A DNA stretch of 64,000 nt from a virus. Numbering within the stretch: position 1 is the stretch's first letter; each line of letters opens with the position of its first letter. Below are positions 10,320 through 27,593 of the stretch, in pieces. The notes beneath the pieces are model-generated. The model had not been told where the DNA came from. It was given only the letters and a program-made list of their open reading frames with translations, and did no database searches. The position numbers were made by a program, and so were the translations under genes. The DNA is taken from the IMG/VR virus record IMGVR_UViG_3300037245_003639; one strand, written 5' to 3'.

Positions 10320-10391
10320 GGGCGCGTAGTTTAGAGGAAGAATGCTTCGTTTACACCGAAGAGGTCGCTGGTTCGAATCCAGCCGTGCCCA
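10320..10391 (+). tRNA. tRNA-Val(TAC)
   Basis: GGGCGCG...CTTCG TTTACAC CGAAG...GCTGGTTCGAATCCAGCCGTGCCCA. Confidence 0.7.
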
Positions 10392-10563
10392 GTATATAGC
10401 CTTATCTAGCACGGATGTAAAAGAATGTGGAATTACCTGAATAGACTATCTGACATTGATGAAGGGCAAGCCTGGAGATTGTTGTGTGTGTTGTCGTTTG
10501 TCACAGGGATGGTCGCATGTAACTCTCTGTGGTTATTAGTCCTTTGATCCTGGGTGGGTTTTA

Positions 10564-10625
10564 GGGTGCGTGGCTCAGCTCGTGCTTGGCCGAAAAGATC
10601 GTGGGTTCGAATCCCACCTCGCCCA
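10564..10625 (+). pseudogene. truncated tRNA-like element (about 62 nt)
   Basis: Acceptor GGGTGCG/CTCGCCC and T arm GTGGGTTCGAATCCCAC are present, but only about 30 nt lie between them, so the D and anticodon arms are incomplete. Confidence 0.4.
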
Positions 10626-10636
10626 TTAGTGAAACA

Positions 10637-10849
10637 ATGAAACGCAGAATTGAAGTCCGAAAGAAACCTGATGGCAGTGTGGATGAAGTCCTGCTTTACA
10701 TCGATGACGAGTGCGTAATGCACCTGGAGTACATGGACGACAATAAGATTTGGATTGGTCTGTATGACGGCAGAGACTATCCCACTCACGTAAGAATGGG
10801 AAGCGCCAAGCCAATCCAGACTGTGGTTGAAGACGGAAACGAAGAATGA
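10637..10849 (+). CDS. hypothetical protein
   Basis: Start trimmed to MKRRIEV downstream of the tRNA-like element. Confidence 0.4.
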   Translation: MKRRIEVRKKPDGSVDEVLLYIDDECVMHLEYMDDNKIWIGLYDGRDYPTHVRMGSAKPIQTVVEDGNEE

Positions 10850-11043
10850 AAATCGGTGATACAGTTTACGTCTTGGCAAAGGAAGACGGAACGATACTTG
10901 GCGACGGTGATGGGTTGGTGATGTCCGAAGTCGAGTTGATTGTTAAAAATGAGCTTGCTCTTAATGATAAATATTTAGGAGCCCTCAATCAATGTGATAT
11001 GTCAGAAGTCACAGTGGAGACAGTGATACTGACAAAAGTTTGA
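10846..11043 (+). CDS. hypothetical protein
   Basis: 65 aa, coupled to the upstream gene through an ATGA overlap. Confidence 0.35.
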   Translation: MKIGDTVYVLAKEDGTILGDGDGLVMSEVELIVKNELALNDKYLGALNQCDMSEVTVETVILTKV

Positions 11044-11049
11044 TCTAGA

Positions 11050-11121
11050 TCCGAGGTAGCACAACGGTAGTGCGTCGCACTGTTAATGCGATGGTTGCTG
11101 GTTCGAATCCAGCCCTCGGAG
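11050..11121 (+). tRNA. tRNA-Asn(GTT)
   Basis: TCCGAGGTAGCACAACGGTAGTGC TCGCA CTGTTAA TGCGA...GCTGGTTCGAATCCAGCCCTCGGAG. Confidence 0.7.
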
Positions 11122-11135
11122 TTTGAGAGTCGATC

Positions 11136-11209
11136 TCATCGGTAGCTCAGTTGGCCAGAGCACTTGGCTGTTAACCAGGGTGTCGCGGGTTCGAATCCCG
11201 TCCGGTGAG
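11136..11209 (+). tRNA. tRNA-Asn(GTT), second copy
   Basis: TCATCGGTAGCTCAGTTGGCCAGAGC CTTGG CTGTTAA CCAGG...GCGGGTTCGAATCCCGTCCGGTGAG. Confidence 0.6.
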
Positions 11210-11355
11210 CTTCACCCGAAAGGGTGCGAAGAGATCTTTGATAACTTAAAAGCGACGTTTTGTTTTGGCTGCGGCAGACCACAACCAGAAGGTATAATGG
11301 ACTGCCAATGCGAAAATGACGAATAACGGAAGCGACCACCTATCGCTTCCGCTAA

Positions 11356-11429
11356 GGGCGTTTGGCTCAGTTGGTTAGAGCGCATCCTTCACACGGATGA
11401 GATCACAGGTTCAAATCCTGTAACGCCCA
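11356..11429 (+). tRNA. tRNA-Val(CAC)
   Basis: GGGCGTTTGGCTCAGTTGGTTAGAGC CATCC TTCACAC GGATG...ACAGGTTCAAATCCTGTAACGCCCA. Confidence 0.75.
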
Positions 11430-11431
11430 TT

Positions 11432-11653
11432 ATGAGAGATGCAATTGTCGAAATTCTGAAATCAGGCACGGGTTGCGGAGTAGAATTCGCTGCAATGCTG
11501 TTTGTTCATCAACTGGAAGATGGGCGGTTTCGGGTTGGTTGCGAGGGAGATCACGATGAGTGGATCTTTCATAATGCAGAAATGGCCGCTATCTGCTTCT
11601 TGAATAAAAGAAGAGAGAAAGGGCTGGGATTTGATTTTGAAACGGGCGCGTAG
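11432..11653 (+). CDS. hypothetical protein
   Basis: 73-aa ORF between tRNAs. Confidence 0.35.
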   Translation: MRDAIVEILKSGTGCGVEFAAMLFVHQLEDGRFRVGCEGDHDEWIFHNAEMAAICFLNKRREKGLGFDFETGA

Positions 11654-11717
11654 CGCAGTTGGTTAGCGCACTTCGGTGACATCGAAGGGGTCGTGAGTTC
11701 AAGTCTCACCGTGCCCA
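11644..11717 (+). tRNA. tRNA-Val(GAC)
   Basis: GGGCGCGTAGCGCAGTTGGTTAGCGC CTTCG GTGACAT CGAAG...GTGAGTTCAAGTCTCACCGTGCCCA. Confidence 0.75.
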
Positions 11718-25588: not shown

Positions 25589-25593
25589 TTTGC

Positions 25594-25665
25594 GCTCTCC
25601 TAGTGATAATGGCAGCACGGCTCCTTGGTAAGGAGCAAGAAATGGTTCGAATCCATTGGAGAGCT
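25594..25665 (+). tRNA. tRNA-Thr(GGT)
   Basis: GCTCTCCTAGTGATAATGGCAGCAC GCTCC TTGGTAA GGAGC...AATGGTTCGAATCCATTGGAGAGCT. Confidence 0.75.
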
Positions 25666-25783
25666 TTATGGGTGCAAGTATGGGTTCGAATCCCATATGA
25701 TTAGAGATAGTTGTGAGGTTGGGTGGGTTTGGAGATCTCTACAATATCATTAGTGTAACGGCTGCACGGTACCCGCGATACAT

Positions 25784-25857
25784 GTTCCCGTAGCTCAACT
25801 GGATAGAGCGTTGGTTTCCTAAACCGAAGGTCAGAGGTTCGAATCCTCTCGGGAACG
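25784..25857 (+). tRNA. tRNA-Arg(CCT)
   Basis: GTTCCCGTAGCTCAACTGGATAGAGC TTGGT TTCCTAA ACCGA...AGAGGTTCGAATCCTCTCGGGAACG. Confidence 0.75.
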
Positions 25858-25860
25858 TTT

Positions 25861-25934
25861 GTCCTCGTGGCGCAATCGGATAGCGCACCTGACTACGAAT
25901 CAGGAGGTTCCAAGTTCGAATCTTGGCGGGGACG
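25861..25934 (+). tRNA. tRNA-Arg(ACG)
   Basis: GTCCTCGTGGCGCAATCGGATAGCGC CCTGA CTACGAA TCAGG...CCAAGTTCGAATCTTGGCGGGGACG. Confidence 0.75.
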
Positions 25935-25936
25935 TT

Positions 25937-27265
25937 TTAGTAAACAGACAAGAACGAAGCGAGATCCCGTAGGTTTATAAGTGAATCTCGGTTCATATCA
26001 CCATCGGGATATGACATTCCGCCTTTGCCATAGTTCGACAATAAAGTGGCCAGATCGTTTACGTCAACAATGCCGTCTCCATCAAAATCTCCCGAGCAAG
26101 TGAATTCCTGGAATTCATAAGCGCCCATATCAATCACGGGCGATGTTCCAATGCCGATATCAATCATGCCTTCGTCATCGACATAGCGAGGCAGACCATC
26201 CAGGTCGAGTAGAATCCCCGGAATGACTCGATTATCACCTGAATCGATGCAAGGGGAACCAGACAGTAGACGGCTGTTCTCCCACCCCGGATAAAAGTCG
26301 ATATTGCCCTCTCCTGCCCACCCGTGCTGAACATCACTGTAACTCACTCGGGAGGCAGGCCCCTCAACATCGGCGATGGATTCGGGGTCATTGTCCCACA
26401 GGATGCAGTTGGTTATCCAGGGAACGTCGGCCAAAGTGTTCCAGTTATAGATGCCCCCTCCTGTTTCAGCGACATTCTGAGTGAATGTGCAATTGGCGAT
26501 GTTGCTCGTGCTCTGATAGTTCATCACTCCTCCACCGTTGGTTTGGGCTCGGTTGCCCACAAAGAGGCAGTTAATGATTGACGGGTTGCTCCCCCAGTTG
26601 CCGATTCCACCGCCAAAACCGTAACCAGACGAGTTGTTGATGAACTCGCAGTTCAGAATAAGACCTCCGCTGTAAAGGTTGAAAATACCTCCACCACGGA
26701 GTTGCACTTGGTTGTCGTTGAATACACATTGTATTATTGTAGGTTCACTGCGATAATTAAAGATTGCACCTCCACCATATATGGTTCCTTCAGAATCGGA
26801 GTTGCCTTCAAAGACGCAGTTGGTGATCAGGGGTTGGCTGTAATGGTTATAAATGCCTCCTCCACCGGTCATGCCCCGCACTGAGTTCTGTAGGAATATG
26901 CAATTCCGGATGGTTGGGTTGCTAGATTCACAAAGAAGTGCCCCGCCAAATTCCGCCATGAAACCATTGCATACAGTGAAGCCATCTATAACTAGCTTGG
27001 GGTCATCATGAATGTAAAATCCCCGACCGTCATTTTCACAGTCAATGATACAGTAATCGGGACCGTTCTCAGATTGCAGAATTATATCTTTGCTGAGATC
27101 AAGATTTTTATTGCCCGAGCCAGTATAAATTCCATCGGCGACTAAGACGGTATCTCCCGCTTCGGCATTGTCAATGCCCTCCTGGATGGTGGTGTAGTCT
27201 AATGGAACGTAAATGAGACCCGCTATTATGACAAGAATTGTGGTTATCATAATGTCCTCCCCCAC
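25937..27265 (-). CDS. membrane-anchored right-handed beta-helix protein with C-terminal dockerin-like Ca-binding repeat
   Basis: N-terminal TM helix; many NCxF/GGGI beta-helix turns (pectate-lyase fold); C-terminal DFDGDGIVDVNDLATLL dockerin-type motif. Confidence 0.55.
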   Translation of the reverse strand: MGEDIMITTILVIIAGLIYVPLDYTTIQEGIDNAEAGDTVLVADGIYTGSGNKNLDLSKDIILQSENGPDYCIIDCENDGRGFYIHDDPKLVIDGFTVCNGFMAEFGGALLCESSNPTIRNCIFLQNSVRGMTGGGGIYNHYSQPLITNCVFEGNSDSEGTIYGGGAIFNYRSEPTIIQCVFNDNQVQLRGGGIFNLYSGGLILNCEFINNSSGYGFGGGIGNWGSNPSIINCLFVGNRAQTNGGGVMNYQSTSNIANCTFTQNVAETGGGIYNWNTLADVPWITNCILWDNDPESIADVEGPASRVSYSDVQHGWAGEGNIDFYPGWENSRLLSGSPCIDSGDNRVIPGILLDLDGLPRYVDDEGMIDIGIGTSPVIDMGAYEFQEFTCSGDFDGDGIVDVNDLATLLSNYGKGGMSYPDGDMNRDSLINLRDLASFLSVY

Positions 27266-27333
27266 CTTGAATACAAATTAGTTCCAAATAATCCTTGGTT
27301 CATTTCTACCGAAAACGTTTGAAATGAACATTT

Positions 27334-27407
27334 GTCCCCGTGACGCAACTGGATAGCGTGCTGGTCTTCTAAGCCGGAAGTTGTGGGTTCGAATCCTACC
27401 GGGGACG
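27334..27407 (+). tRNA. tRNA-Arg(TCT)
   Basis: GTCCCCGTGACGCAACTGGATAGCGT CTGGT CTTCTAA GCCGG...GTGGGTTCGAATCCTACCGGGGACG. Confidence 0.7.
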
Positions 27408-27440
27408 TTTTATAGCGGTTGAACTCGTTTCGCAATATTT

Positions 27441-27515
27441 GCTCCGGTCGCCTAATGGATATGGCCCCTGGCTTCGAACCAGGCATGATTGGGGGTTCGA
27501 GTCCCTCCCGGAGCG
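27441..27515 (+). tRNA. tRNA-Arg(TCG)
   Basis: GCTCCGGTCGCCTAATGGATATGGC CCTGG CTTCGAA CCAGG...GGGGGTTCGAGTCCCTCCCGGAGCG. Confidence 0.65.
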
Positions 27516-27518
27516 TTT

Positions 27519-27593
27519 GTTCCCATGGCCTAATTGGATAGGGCAGCGGCCTCCGAAGCCGAAGAATTCCAGGTTCGAATCCTGGTGGGAACG
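27519..27593 (+). tRNA. tRNA-Arg(CCG)
   Basis: GTTCCCATGGCCTAATTGGATAGGGC GCGGC CTCCGAA GCCGA...CCAGGTTCGAATCCTGGTGGGAACG. Confidence 0.7.

Follow-up and report, generated by a model that had tools for sequence, protein, structure and literature searches.

A stretch of 64,000 nucleotides of the IMG/VR virus record IMGVR_UViG_3300037245_003639 (the window, in what follows always this whole stretch) carries an island of transfer RNA (tRNA) genes, which was analyzed here by gene prediction, covariance-model scoring and comparison with related metagenomic contigs. In total, the island comprises 45 intact-looking tRNA genes with 36 distinct anticodons for 15 amino acids, and for the amino acids covered the anticodon set is maximal. 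The comparison suggests that the island probably serves what appears to be a huge phage as a parallel tRNA pool, i.e., a saturated set derived from a core of tRNAs with U at the wobble position (U34) and kept for translation irrespective of the host pool.

Extent and anticodon repertoire of the tRNA island

ARAGORN called 44 tRNA genes across the window, and 43 of them reached the gathering score of the Rfam model RF00005 (29 bits), which was used as the tRNA cut-off (range 30-76 bits, median 62.9, all matching model positions 1-71). The sole call below it is Ser-CGA at 15537; low scores are expected for Ser genes, because type II tRNAs are here scored against RF00005. One more gene, Ser-GCT at 14005-14094, was missed by ARAGORN and has a sub-threshold Rfam score of 21.7 bits. 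Its acceptor, anticodon and T stems are perfect, its odd D arm (and T arm) is common to the ARAGORN-called Ser-GCT genes of two relatives, L001 and L016, and it is syntenic with the Ser-GCT gene of a third, L008, between Ala-TGC and Ser-TGA. Because of this orthology and synteny it was counted as real, which gives the total of 45. Covariance-model scoring, named in an earlier reading of the bare letters (the sequence-only reading) as the way to expose low-scoring pseudogenes, does not refute the island.

The genes form two divergent arrays, 8 of the 45 lying on the minus strand at 1940-7204 and 37 on the plus strand at 10320-27594, with a density of 45 genes per 25.7 kb and 16 of the 44 gaps no longer than 20 nucleotides. 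Clustering by amino acid, as had been proposed, is pronounced: 21 adjacent pairs share an amino acid against 2.35 expected, and none of 100,000 shuffles reached 21. The sequence-only reading had placed about 57 tRNAs at 10320-27593. Only 45 are supported, which is also the approximate sum of its own itemized list, and its range fits the 37 plus-strand genes but not the Met, Phe and Lys genes that it counted, which sit in the minus-strand array. Every anticodon that it itemized is present by ARAGORN or Rfam, with the sub-threshold Ser-GCT near 14004 accepted through orthology, and the genes that it called "Phe-like" and "Ile-like" are ordinary, high-scoring Phe-GAA and Ile-GAT genes.

About 12 further tRNAs beyond the 45 were considered and rejected, the extra candidates from relaxed searches being implausible or degenerate. 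A relaxed ARAGORN run with introns allowed returned 66 calls, the extras of which need introns of 74 nucleotides to 2.7 kb or show poor arms, and an Rfam search at E-values up to 10 added just 10564-10625, 14009-14094 and 37753-37892. The first of these belongs to a remnant at 10551-10626 (26.6 bits, poor D arm), which is 77% identical to 10356-10394 and represents the 3' half of Val-TAC in decayed form. A further sequence at 25516-25589 has an Arg-like body and a 6-nucleotide anticodon loop, was called by ARAGORN only at a relaxed threshold, and is probably a pseudogene or a non-decoding tRNA-like RNA.

The genes of the minus-strand array are as follows (ARAGORN calls; Rfam scores in bits).

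1940..2015 (-): tRNA CAT, Met elongator or Ile2, not initiator-like (G1-C72 paired, no GGG/CCC anticodon stem); 68.1
4932..5007 (-): tRNA CAT, Met/Ile2 class ambiguous, in the slot of the relatives' Ile-TAT; 64.9
5012..5082 (-): tRNA-Phe GAA; 52.5
5091..5162 (-): second tRNA-Phe GAA, 66% identical to the first; 63.7
5181..5254 (-): tRNA-Lys CTT, loop TT-CTT-GC, G37; 57.4
5628..5699 (-): tRNA-Lys CTT; 62.3
6998..7068 (-): tRNA-Lys TTT; 56.0
7130..7204 (-): tRNA-Lys TTT; 76.2

The plus-strand array, together with the two tRNA-like sequences within it, reads as follows (ARAGORN calls with Rfam scores in bits, unless stated otherwise).

10320..10391 (+): tRNA-Val TAC; 66.8
10551..10626 (+): degenerate tRNA-like remnant, copy of the Val-TAC 3' half; Rfam 26.6, sub-threshold
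11050..11121 (+): tRNA-Asn GTT; 73.6
11136..11210 (+): second tRNA-Asn GTT, 64% identical; 63.8
11356..11429 (+): tRNA-Val CAC; 73.1
11644..11717 (+): tRNA-Val GAC; 63.6
11929..12004 (+): tRNA-Ile GAT; 73.2
12622..12693 (+): second tRNA-Ile GAT; 59.8
12860..12934 (+): tRNA-Ala CGC, G3:U70; 67.7
13315..13389 (+): tRNA-Ala GGC, G3:U70; 66.4
13676..13749 (+): tRNA-Ala TGC, G3:U70; 71.6
14005..14094 (+): tRNA-Ser GCT, type II; Rfam 21.7, sub-threshold; orthology with L001 and L016, synteny with L008
14702..14791 (+): tRNA-Ser TGA; 31.0; the L008 ortholog carries CGA
15264..15352 (+): tRNA-Ser GGA; 30.3; 90% identical to L008 Ser-GGA
15537..15625 (+): tRNA-Ser CGA; ARAGORN only; 86% identical to L008 Ser-TGA
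21425..21497 (+): tRNA-Gln TTG; 60.9
21551..21625 (+): tRNA-Pro TGG, C33 for U33; 60.2
21807..21879 (+): tRNA-Glu CTC; 63.3
21882..21955 (+): tRNA-Thr TGT; 55.4
21961..22033 (+): tRNA-Gln CTG; 56.5
22039..22111 (+): tRNA-Gly GCC; 69.4
22226..22297 (+): tRNA-Gly CCC; 73.1
22302..22372 (+): tRNA-Gly TCC; 62.4
22667..22739 (+): tRNA-Thr CGT; 62.9
22742..22815 (+): tRNA-His GTG, only gene with encoded CCA, T at -1; 57.0
22817..22890 (+): tRNA-Pro CGG; 63.1
22900..22974 (+): tRNA-Pro GGG, C33 for U33; 60.4
24602..24675 (+): tRNA-His GTG, G at -1, C73; 61.9
24682..24755 (+): tRNA-Glu TTC, T loop ATCGATA; 47.0
25174..25246 (+): tRNA-Glu TTC; 64.7
25253..25326 (+): tRNA-Arg GCG; 61.9; best match in the window Arg-ACG, 75%
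25332..25405 (+): tRNA CAT, the most elongator-Met-like; 65.3
25516..25589 (+): Arg-like body, 6-nucleotide anticodon loop; relaxed ARAGORN only
25594..25665 (+): tRNA-Thr GGT; 51.8
25783..25858 (+): tRNA-Arg CCT; 68.2
25860..25935 (+): tRNA-Arg ACG, loop CU-ACG-AA; 65.7
27333..27408 (+): tRNA-Arg TCT; 60.0
27440..27516 (+): tRNA-Arg TCG; 53.9
27518..27594 (+): tRNA-Arg CCG; 59.5

The only large minus-strand open reading frame (ORF) within the plus-strand array, at 25937-27265, encodes a beta-helix (PMP-repeat) protein with a dockerin-like C-terminus.

The wobble coverage of the recognized boxes is full, as had been claimed: G34, C34 and U34 are all present for Val, Ala, Pro, Gly, Thr and the UCN codons of Ser, and both U34 and C34 for Gln, Glu and Lys, the split boxes with purine-ending codons. 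Arg is served by six tRNAs (ACG, GCG, CCG, TCG, TCT and CCT). Several anticodons occur in more than one copy: Glu has one CTC and two TTC genes, two genes each are present for His GTG, Ile GAT, Asn GTT, Phe GAA, Lys CTT and Lys TTT, and there are three CAT genes. The similarity of the three CAT tRNAs to Met versus Ile2 is ambiguous, and none of them has the hallmarks of a bacterial initiator.

The isotype identity elements, judged by rules that are established knowledge, agree with the anticodons. The Ala tRNAs have G3:U70 and A73, the Pro tRNAs C1-G72 and A73, and the Ser tRNAs a long variable arm and G73; the Ala and Pro base pairs and the Ser arm had been noted before and are readable directly in the gene sequences. 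U73 was found in Gly, C73 in His, U1-A72 with G73 in Gln and Asn, and G73 in Arg. These bacterial-type acceptor and discriminator elements imply charging by bacterial-type synthetases. No bona fide aminoacyl-tRNA synthetase is encoded in the window, where a fragment resembling the catalytic core of alanyl-tRNA synthetase (34112-34876) scores 71 bits against the alaS cutoff of 457 bits. CCA is encoded in only one of the 45 genes (His at 22742). The position directly after the discriminator is T in 39-40 of 44 genes, and the first two positions are TT in 36-37 of 44, which resembles a uniform 3'-processing signal.

A number of the anticodon and T loops are unusual. Pro-TGG and Pro-GGG of the window have C33 instead of the near-universal U33, as do 16 of 250 unique tRNAs of the relatives (among them Val-GAC in 5 of 9 and Pro-TGG in 3 of 9 cases), the relatives in question being L003, L006, L007, L013, L015, L016, L032, L034, L035, L037, L042, L043 and L051. 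Because C33 recurs across such divergent members of the clade, it is not an accident of sequencing or prediction. In the T loop of Glu-TTC at 24682, A54 and A60 replace T54 and a pyrimidine; since the same loop, ATCGATA, is kept in a 568-kb relative (L006 548-619), the low score of this gene points to a maintained variant and not to decay. One tRNA-like gene with a 6- or 8-nucleotide anticodon loop was found in the window (25516-25589) and in each of four relatives (L006 5042, L032 12103, L037 3696 and L043 4917), with no obvious homology among the five. Finally, tRNA-Ile(UAU), which is rare in bacteria, is common in the clade (L006/L027, L010, L016, L019, L030, L037 and L039), and in L006/L027 and L010 it is 93 nucleotides long owing to an insertion of ~20 nucleotides in the variable arm. 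Ile-UAU was not found in the window, where a CAT tRNA fills the equivalent slot.

Architecture and evolution of the island in its clade

Protein-coding genes between the two arrays are listed below; one of them, a clade-specific marker, allowed us to identify relatives of the element.

7672..8019 (-): distant PTH2-like peptidyl-tRNA hydrolase, between the arrays; PF01981 23.6 bits (cutoff 23), NCBIfam Pth2 25 bits, far under the 126-bit cutoff
8295..9323 (-): clade-specific 342-amino-acid marker at the island centre; 57 homologues, all uncultured; between divergent tRNA arrays in all relatives examined
9342..9764 (-): nucleoside 2-deoxyribosyltransferase-like gene adjoining the marker; PF15891; same neighbour in L004, L006, L007, L008 and L010

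All 57 homologues of the marker are metagenomic. A 100% identical copy lies on a contig of 403,172 bp, presumably the one from which the window derives, and other relatives are on contigs of 568, 522, 498 and 201 kb. The relatives were compared over ~10 kb on each side of the marker. In every one examined, the marker and the deoxyribosyltransferase-like gene stand between two divergent tRNA arrays, one with Lys, Phe, Met and often Ile-UAU, the other with Val, Asn, Ile, Ala, Ser, Pro, Thr, Gly, Glu, Gln, His and Arg. L008, the closest of the long relatives (77% marker identity), shares its tRNA order with the window; outward from the marker this order reads Val, Asn, Asn, Val, Val, Ile, Ile, three to four Ala and four Ser, followed by a methylase gene. 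The small ORFs interleaved among the tRNAs are also conserved between these two.

Orthologous tRNAs are 65-95% identical between relatives, with the cloverleaf preserved. Identity among the isoacceptors of the window is 58-87%, and it is 64-67% for those pairs with the same anticodon that were compared (Phe, Asn, Ile and His); on these values, an origin of the isoacceptors by recent tandem duplication was rejected. In the 568-kb relative (L006), the two His types are matched by separate orthologs. Because the duplicates are divergent and the His types have separate orthologs, the tRNA set is regarded as old and maintained.

The Ser genes illustrate how the set is maintained. The Ser-TGA gene of the window (14702-14791) is orthologous to Ser-CGA of L008 (5523-5613, 77% identity), and reciprocally the Ser-CGA gene of the window (15537-15625) to Ser-TGA of L008 (5976-6060, 86%), the anticodon loop of the latter pair differing at base 34 alone. 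Despite the swapped U34 and C34, the full set of GCT, TGA, GGA and CGA is kept in both. These reciprocal switches suggest selection for saturation, and the completeness of the set appears to be kept by selection.

Relatives with 38-45% marker identity have mostly U34 in their family-box tRNAs, plus Arg-ACG, and L037 has also one G34; among relatives with at least 48% marker identity for which several family-box tRNAs were sampled, most have G, C and U at this position. Since the distant members are mostly U34 within the sampled flanks, the saturated set is taken to be derived, having expanded from a U34 core. The clustering by amino acid agrees with an increase through local duplication and subsequent change of the wobble position, and the similarity of Arg-GCG to Arg-ACG (75%, its highest) is consistent with an A34 to G34 change in a duplicate. 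Arg-GCG was also found in relatives L006, L016, L028 and L032.

Role of the island and alternative explanations

If the island is a parallel tRNA pool, as we consider probable, its use can be outlined as follows. The arrays are probably transcribed as several units, and RNase P would mature the 5' ends. In the maturation of bacterial tRNAs without encoded CCA, a U-rich trailer is the preferred context of RNase Z, and CCA is an anti-determinant. Because nearly all genes of the island have a TT trailer and lack CCA, the 3' ends are expected to be cut after the discriminator by an RNase Z-type enzyme, with CCA then added by a host or phage enzyme. After charging by bacterial-type synthetases, the pool would serve the unbiased codon usage of the phage, which in the window is flat (relative synonymous codon usage 0.54-1.46, 0.46 GC at third codon positions, GC3). 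Translation of phage genes could then continue with a host pool that is mismatched, run down after shut-off or cleaved by defence nucleases. Each covered codon would be read by a Watson-Crick or G:U pair, with less reliance on inosine or on wobble-expanding modifications of U34. Arg-GCG, Arg-UCG and Arg-CCG together could read all CGN codons without inosine and so replace inosine-dependent reading, and the Ile-UAU tRNA of the relatives would avoid lysidine.

A bolder version of this explanation, which we hold to be doubtful, is that the subclade evolved a modification-sparing parallel decoding system, in which the saturated set would free phage translation from the essential wobble-modification enzymes of the host (TadA, TilS and the cmo5U/xm5U pathways) and from the need for an intact host tRNA pool. 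The C33 variants would then be a further adaptation of the anticodon loop, e.g., for nuclease evasion.

Several observations weigh against the parallel-pool explanation. No tRNAs for Leu, Asp, Cys, Trp and Tyr and no initiator-like CAT tRNA were found in the window by ARAGORN or Rfam, so that a complete decoding set (all 20 amino acids plus an initiator) is not contained in these 64 kb, and ~22% of the codons in the window specify these five amino acids. The missing isotypes may sit elsewhere in the genome, because one relative (L047) has four Leu tRNAs and a Tyr tRNA adjoining the marker and another (L043) has a Trp tRNA. Arg-ACG at 25860 is intact beside Arg-GCG and has the canonical CU-ACG-AA loop; because it is kept, decoding through inosine has not been given up. 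At best, the set is partly independent of modification enzymes, since Arg-ACG is retained and CAT, not UAU, tRNAs are present for any reading of AUA. The evolutionary series rests on the ~10-kb flanks compared. No capsid, terminase or other virion hallmark was found in the window or in the sampled flanks of the relatives. The nearest cellular homologues of the vault protein and glutamine synthetase (GlnA) encoded in the window are spread over at least four phyla (Myxococcota, Acidobacteriota, Planctomycetota and Chloroflexota) at 50-60% identity.

The description of the set as host-independent and inosine-independent in the sequence-only reading needs to be restricted. The former is overstated, because the tRNAs still have to be processed by the host, completed with CCA and charged: encoded CCA is missing from 44 of the 45 genes, the window holds no bona fide synthetase, and five amino acids and the initiator have no tRNA. 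The latter is possible for the CGN codons only, through GCG, UCG and CCG, and even there Arg-ACG is kept.

The best-placed alternative, which we still judge unlikely, is codon compensation: the island would supply tRNAs for codons that are common in a phage of 47% GC and rare in a compositionally different, e.g., high-GC, host. The flat codon usage and GC3 of the window agree with it, as do the origin of some nearest cellular homologues in high-GC Myxococcota, the mostly U34 (A/U-reading) tRNAs of distant clade members, and the precedent of the Xanthomonas phage XacN1, whose tRNAs preferentially serve codons that are more frequent in the phage than in its host (PMC5852040). However, the island has C34 and G34 tRNAs in every box, i.e., for G/C-ending codons that a high-GC host would already serve well, and its tRNAs do not track the phage's own usage, as Leu (8.0% of codons) and Asp (6.5%) have none and His (2.6%) has two.

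A somewhat less likely alternative is anti-defence, in which the tRNAs would be nuclease-insensitive replacements for host tRNAs cut by anticodon nucleases or tRNA-targeting toxins, and the duplicates and odd loops would be escape variants. The seven same-anticodon duplicate pairs (plus the three CAT genes), ~64-67% identical where compared and kept as separate lineages, are consistent with this, and so are the C33 variants of the window and its relatives, G37 in Lys-CTT at 5181, and the RNA-ligase-like, RlaP nucleotidyltransferase and phosphoesterase genes of the window. The lack of an initiator tRNA in the window matches an avoidance noted in PMC10264068. Yet the anticodon loops are mostly canonical, and three isoacceptors per box are not explained by anti-defence alone. 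Such a role is compatible with a parallel tRNA pool and may contribute to it.

It is very improbable that the element is non-viral, i.e., a giant plasmid, another extrachromosomal element or a reduced cellular genome with the island as its own tRNA array. tRNA arrays do occur on bacterial mobile elements too, and the missing virion hallmarks would fit, as would the database searches: no near-identical DNA was found, with only a 41-bp match in INPHARED and none in IMG/VR, and the marker protein had no tblastn match among phages. Genome Taxonomy Database (GTDB) genomes gave no match either. Against it, no rRNA was found by Rfam in the 64 kb and no ribosomal-protein gene among ~70 ORFs scanned. 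Tiny orphan ORFs, HNH endonucleases and methylases abound in the region, and several of its proteins match PHROG families or phage genomes (tblastn) at ~37-44% identity. The sampled parts of the relatives' contigs encode sigma-70, RF-1, peptide deformylase, an intein-laden ribonucleotide reductase, Hsp70, CsrA, Ro60, TnpB and many tiny orphan ORFs; such a mix of translation-factor, ribonucleotide reductase and sigma-factor genes, seen in relatives of 0.5-0.57 Mb, is typical of huge phages, and by this comparison the profile of the relatives matches the published ones (PMC7162821). That the element is an uncultivated huge bacteriophage or phage-like giant element is accordingly a strong inference and not a demonstration, because no virion gene was seen and the assignment is based on gene content and on contig sizes of 0.4-0.57 Mb.

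The least credible alternative, a functionless relic array of decaying pseudogenes, could draw on the two degenerate remnants (10551-10626 and 25516-25589) and on three Ser genes near or below the threshold, but it is already largely refuted by the 43 of 44 genes above the covariance-model threshold, by the conservation of order and anticodons among relatives of 50-77% protein identity, with cloverleaves retained in diverging sequences, and by the uniform TT trailer after the discriminator.

Known systems and other genes of the element

Bacterial tRNA arrays, on mobile elements or chromosomes, are dense, cover many isotypes, often lack CCA and usually contain roughly one gene per isotype; the island differs in having up to six isoacceptors per amino acid and in lying in a phage-like genome. 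Family-box sets with G, C and U at the wobble position are also normal in large bacterial genomes. The island, described in the sequence-only reading as more complete than most bacterial sets, is therefore rich but has precedents.

Up to 67 tRNAs per genome have been published for metagenomic huge phages (Al-Shayeb et al. 2020, PMC7162821). The clade is like them in its 0.4-0.57 Mb scale, dozens of tRNAs, translation-related and RNA-repair genes and uncultivated environmental origin, and differs in having no match in INPHARED or IMG/VR. In the Xanthomonas jumbo phage XacN1, which has been read as less host-dependent, all 20 amino acids are covered by 26 canonical tRNA types, which are duplicated in the terminal repeats and all also present in the host (PMC5852040). 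It shares with the window a large tRNA cluster, a peptidyl-tRNA hydrolase and tRNA repair or maturation genes, whereas in the window no more than 15 amino acids are served, by 36 anticodons in a single-copy island with three isoacceptors per family box. The hypotheses of host tRNA depletion and nuclease evasion were set out in PMC10264068 for cluster C1 mycobacteriophage and T5/T4-type clusters. These resemble the island in their clustered tRNAs, some non-canonical anticodon loops and T4-type RNA repair genes nearby, but they have ~8-36 tRNAs, and resistance mutations in them were mapped to known host nucleases. In some Mollicutes, TadA-free decoding of CGN uses tRNA-Arg GCG and UCG (Yokobori et al. 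2013, PMC3711424). Both are present in the window (Arg-GCG at 25253 and Arg-TCG at 27440), which, unlike these Mollicutes, also keeps Arg-ACG and Arg-CCG, so that the two decoding routes coexist.

Large tRNA islands are thus already known in huge phages, and this one is a new example that works alike and is unusually complete. The two-array architecture, the G/C/U saturation with both ACG and GCG for Arg, the reciprocal wobble switching and the recurrent C33 were not found described in the comparison literature on phage tRNA sets; they may be new in their specifics and leave the category unchanged. As a single observation, the island leaves existing knowledge as it is. Its interest lies in the debate on the purpose of tRNA complements in huge phages, for which codon compensation, replacement of a depleted host pool and defence evasion have been proposed. 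The clade forms a natural series for this debate, from a distant U34 core to saturated G/C/U sets around the same marker. Given complete genomes and an identified host, the series could reveal if the growth of the tRNA set follows genome size, codon usage or the host defence repertoire, and it could likewise show if phages cut their dependence on host tRNA modification enzymes.

The remaining genes of the window, which has a GC content of 47%, include those for a DNA methylase, nitrilase, aminotransferase, sulfotransferase, glutamine synthetase, tyrosine integrase, HNH endonuclease and two ADP-ribosylglycohydrolases, besides the weak PTH2-like gene. RNA-ligase-like, R2K ATP-grasp, RlaP-type nucleotidyltransferase and metallophosphoesterase genes at 40167-41805 and 54745-57395 possibly form an RNA or tRNA repair module. 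On the minus strand at 30573-33203, an 876-amino-acid homologue of the eukaryotic major vault protein is encoded, with shoulder and repeat domains. Its bacterial homologues number in the thousands (~50% identity to proteins of Myxococcota metagenome-assembled genomes), and closer copies (57-68%) were found in related huge-phage-like contigs, also amid tRNAs.

The GC skew changes sign and reaches its cumulative minimum at ~10.0-10.2 kb, where the orientation of genes and tRNAs flips between the arrays. This could reflect a replication origin, an early divergent promoter region or merely the orientation flip; nothing convincing in the way of iterons or an origin signature was found between the arrays. 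Counts of sigma-70 promoter-like sites in both halves, and of terminator-like sites at 1-20 kb, were not above those in shuffled sequences, and 31 terminator-like sites were counted at 20-40 kb against a shuffle mean of 19.1 (standard deviation 4.6). Only a few well-placed sites stand out, among them two terminators (21389-21419 and 24558-24583) and one promoter-like site (13966-13993).

A plus-strand element at 37748-37974 has a sub-threshold match to the YrlA (Y-RNA-like) family (34.6 bits against a gathering score of 69; E-value 8.5e-6 in a search of 601 nucleotides). It contains a permuted tRNA-like module, in which the T arm precedes the D arm, overlaps a weak tRNA match and adjoins the HNH gene at 38033-38467. 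No Ro60 partner for it was found in the window; the 568-kb relative encodes Ro60 (L001 14597-16165).

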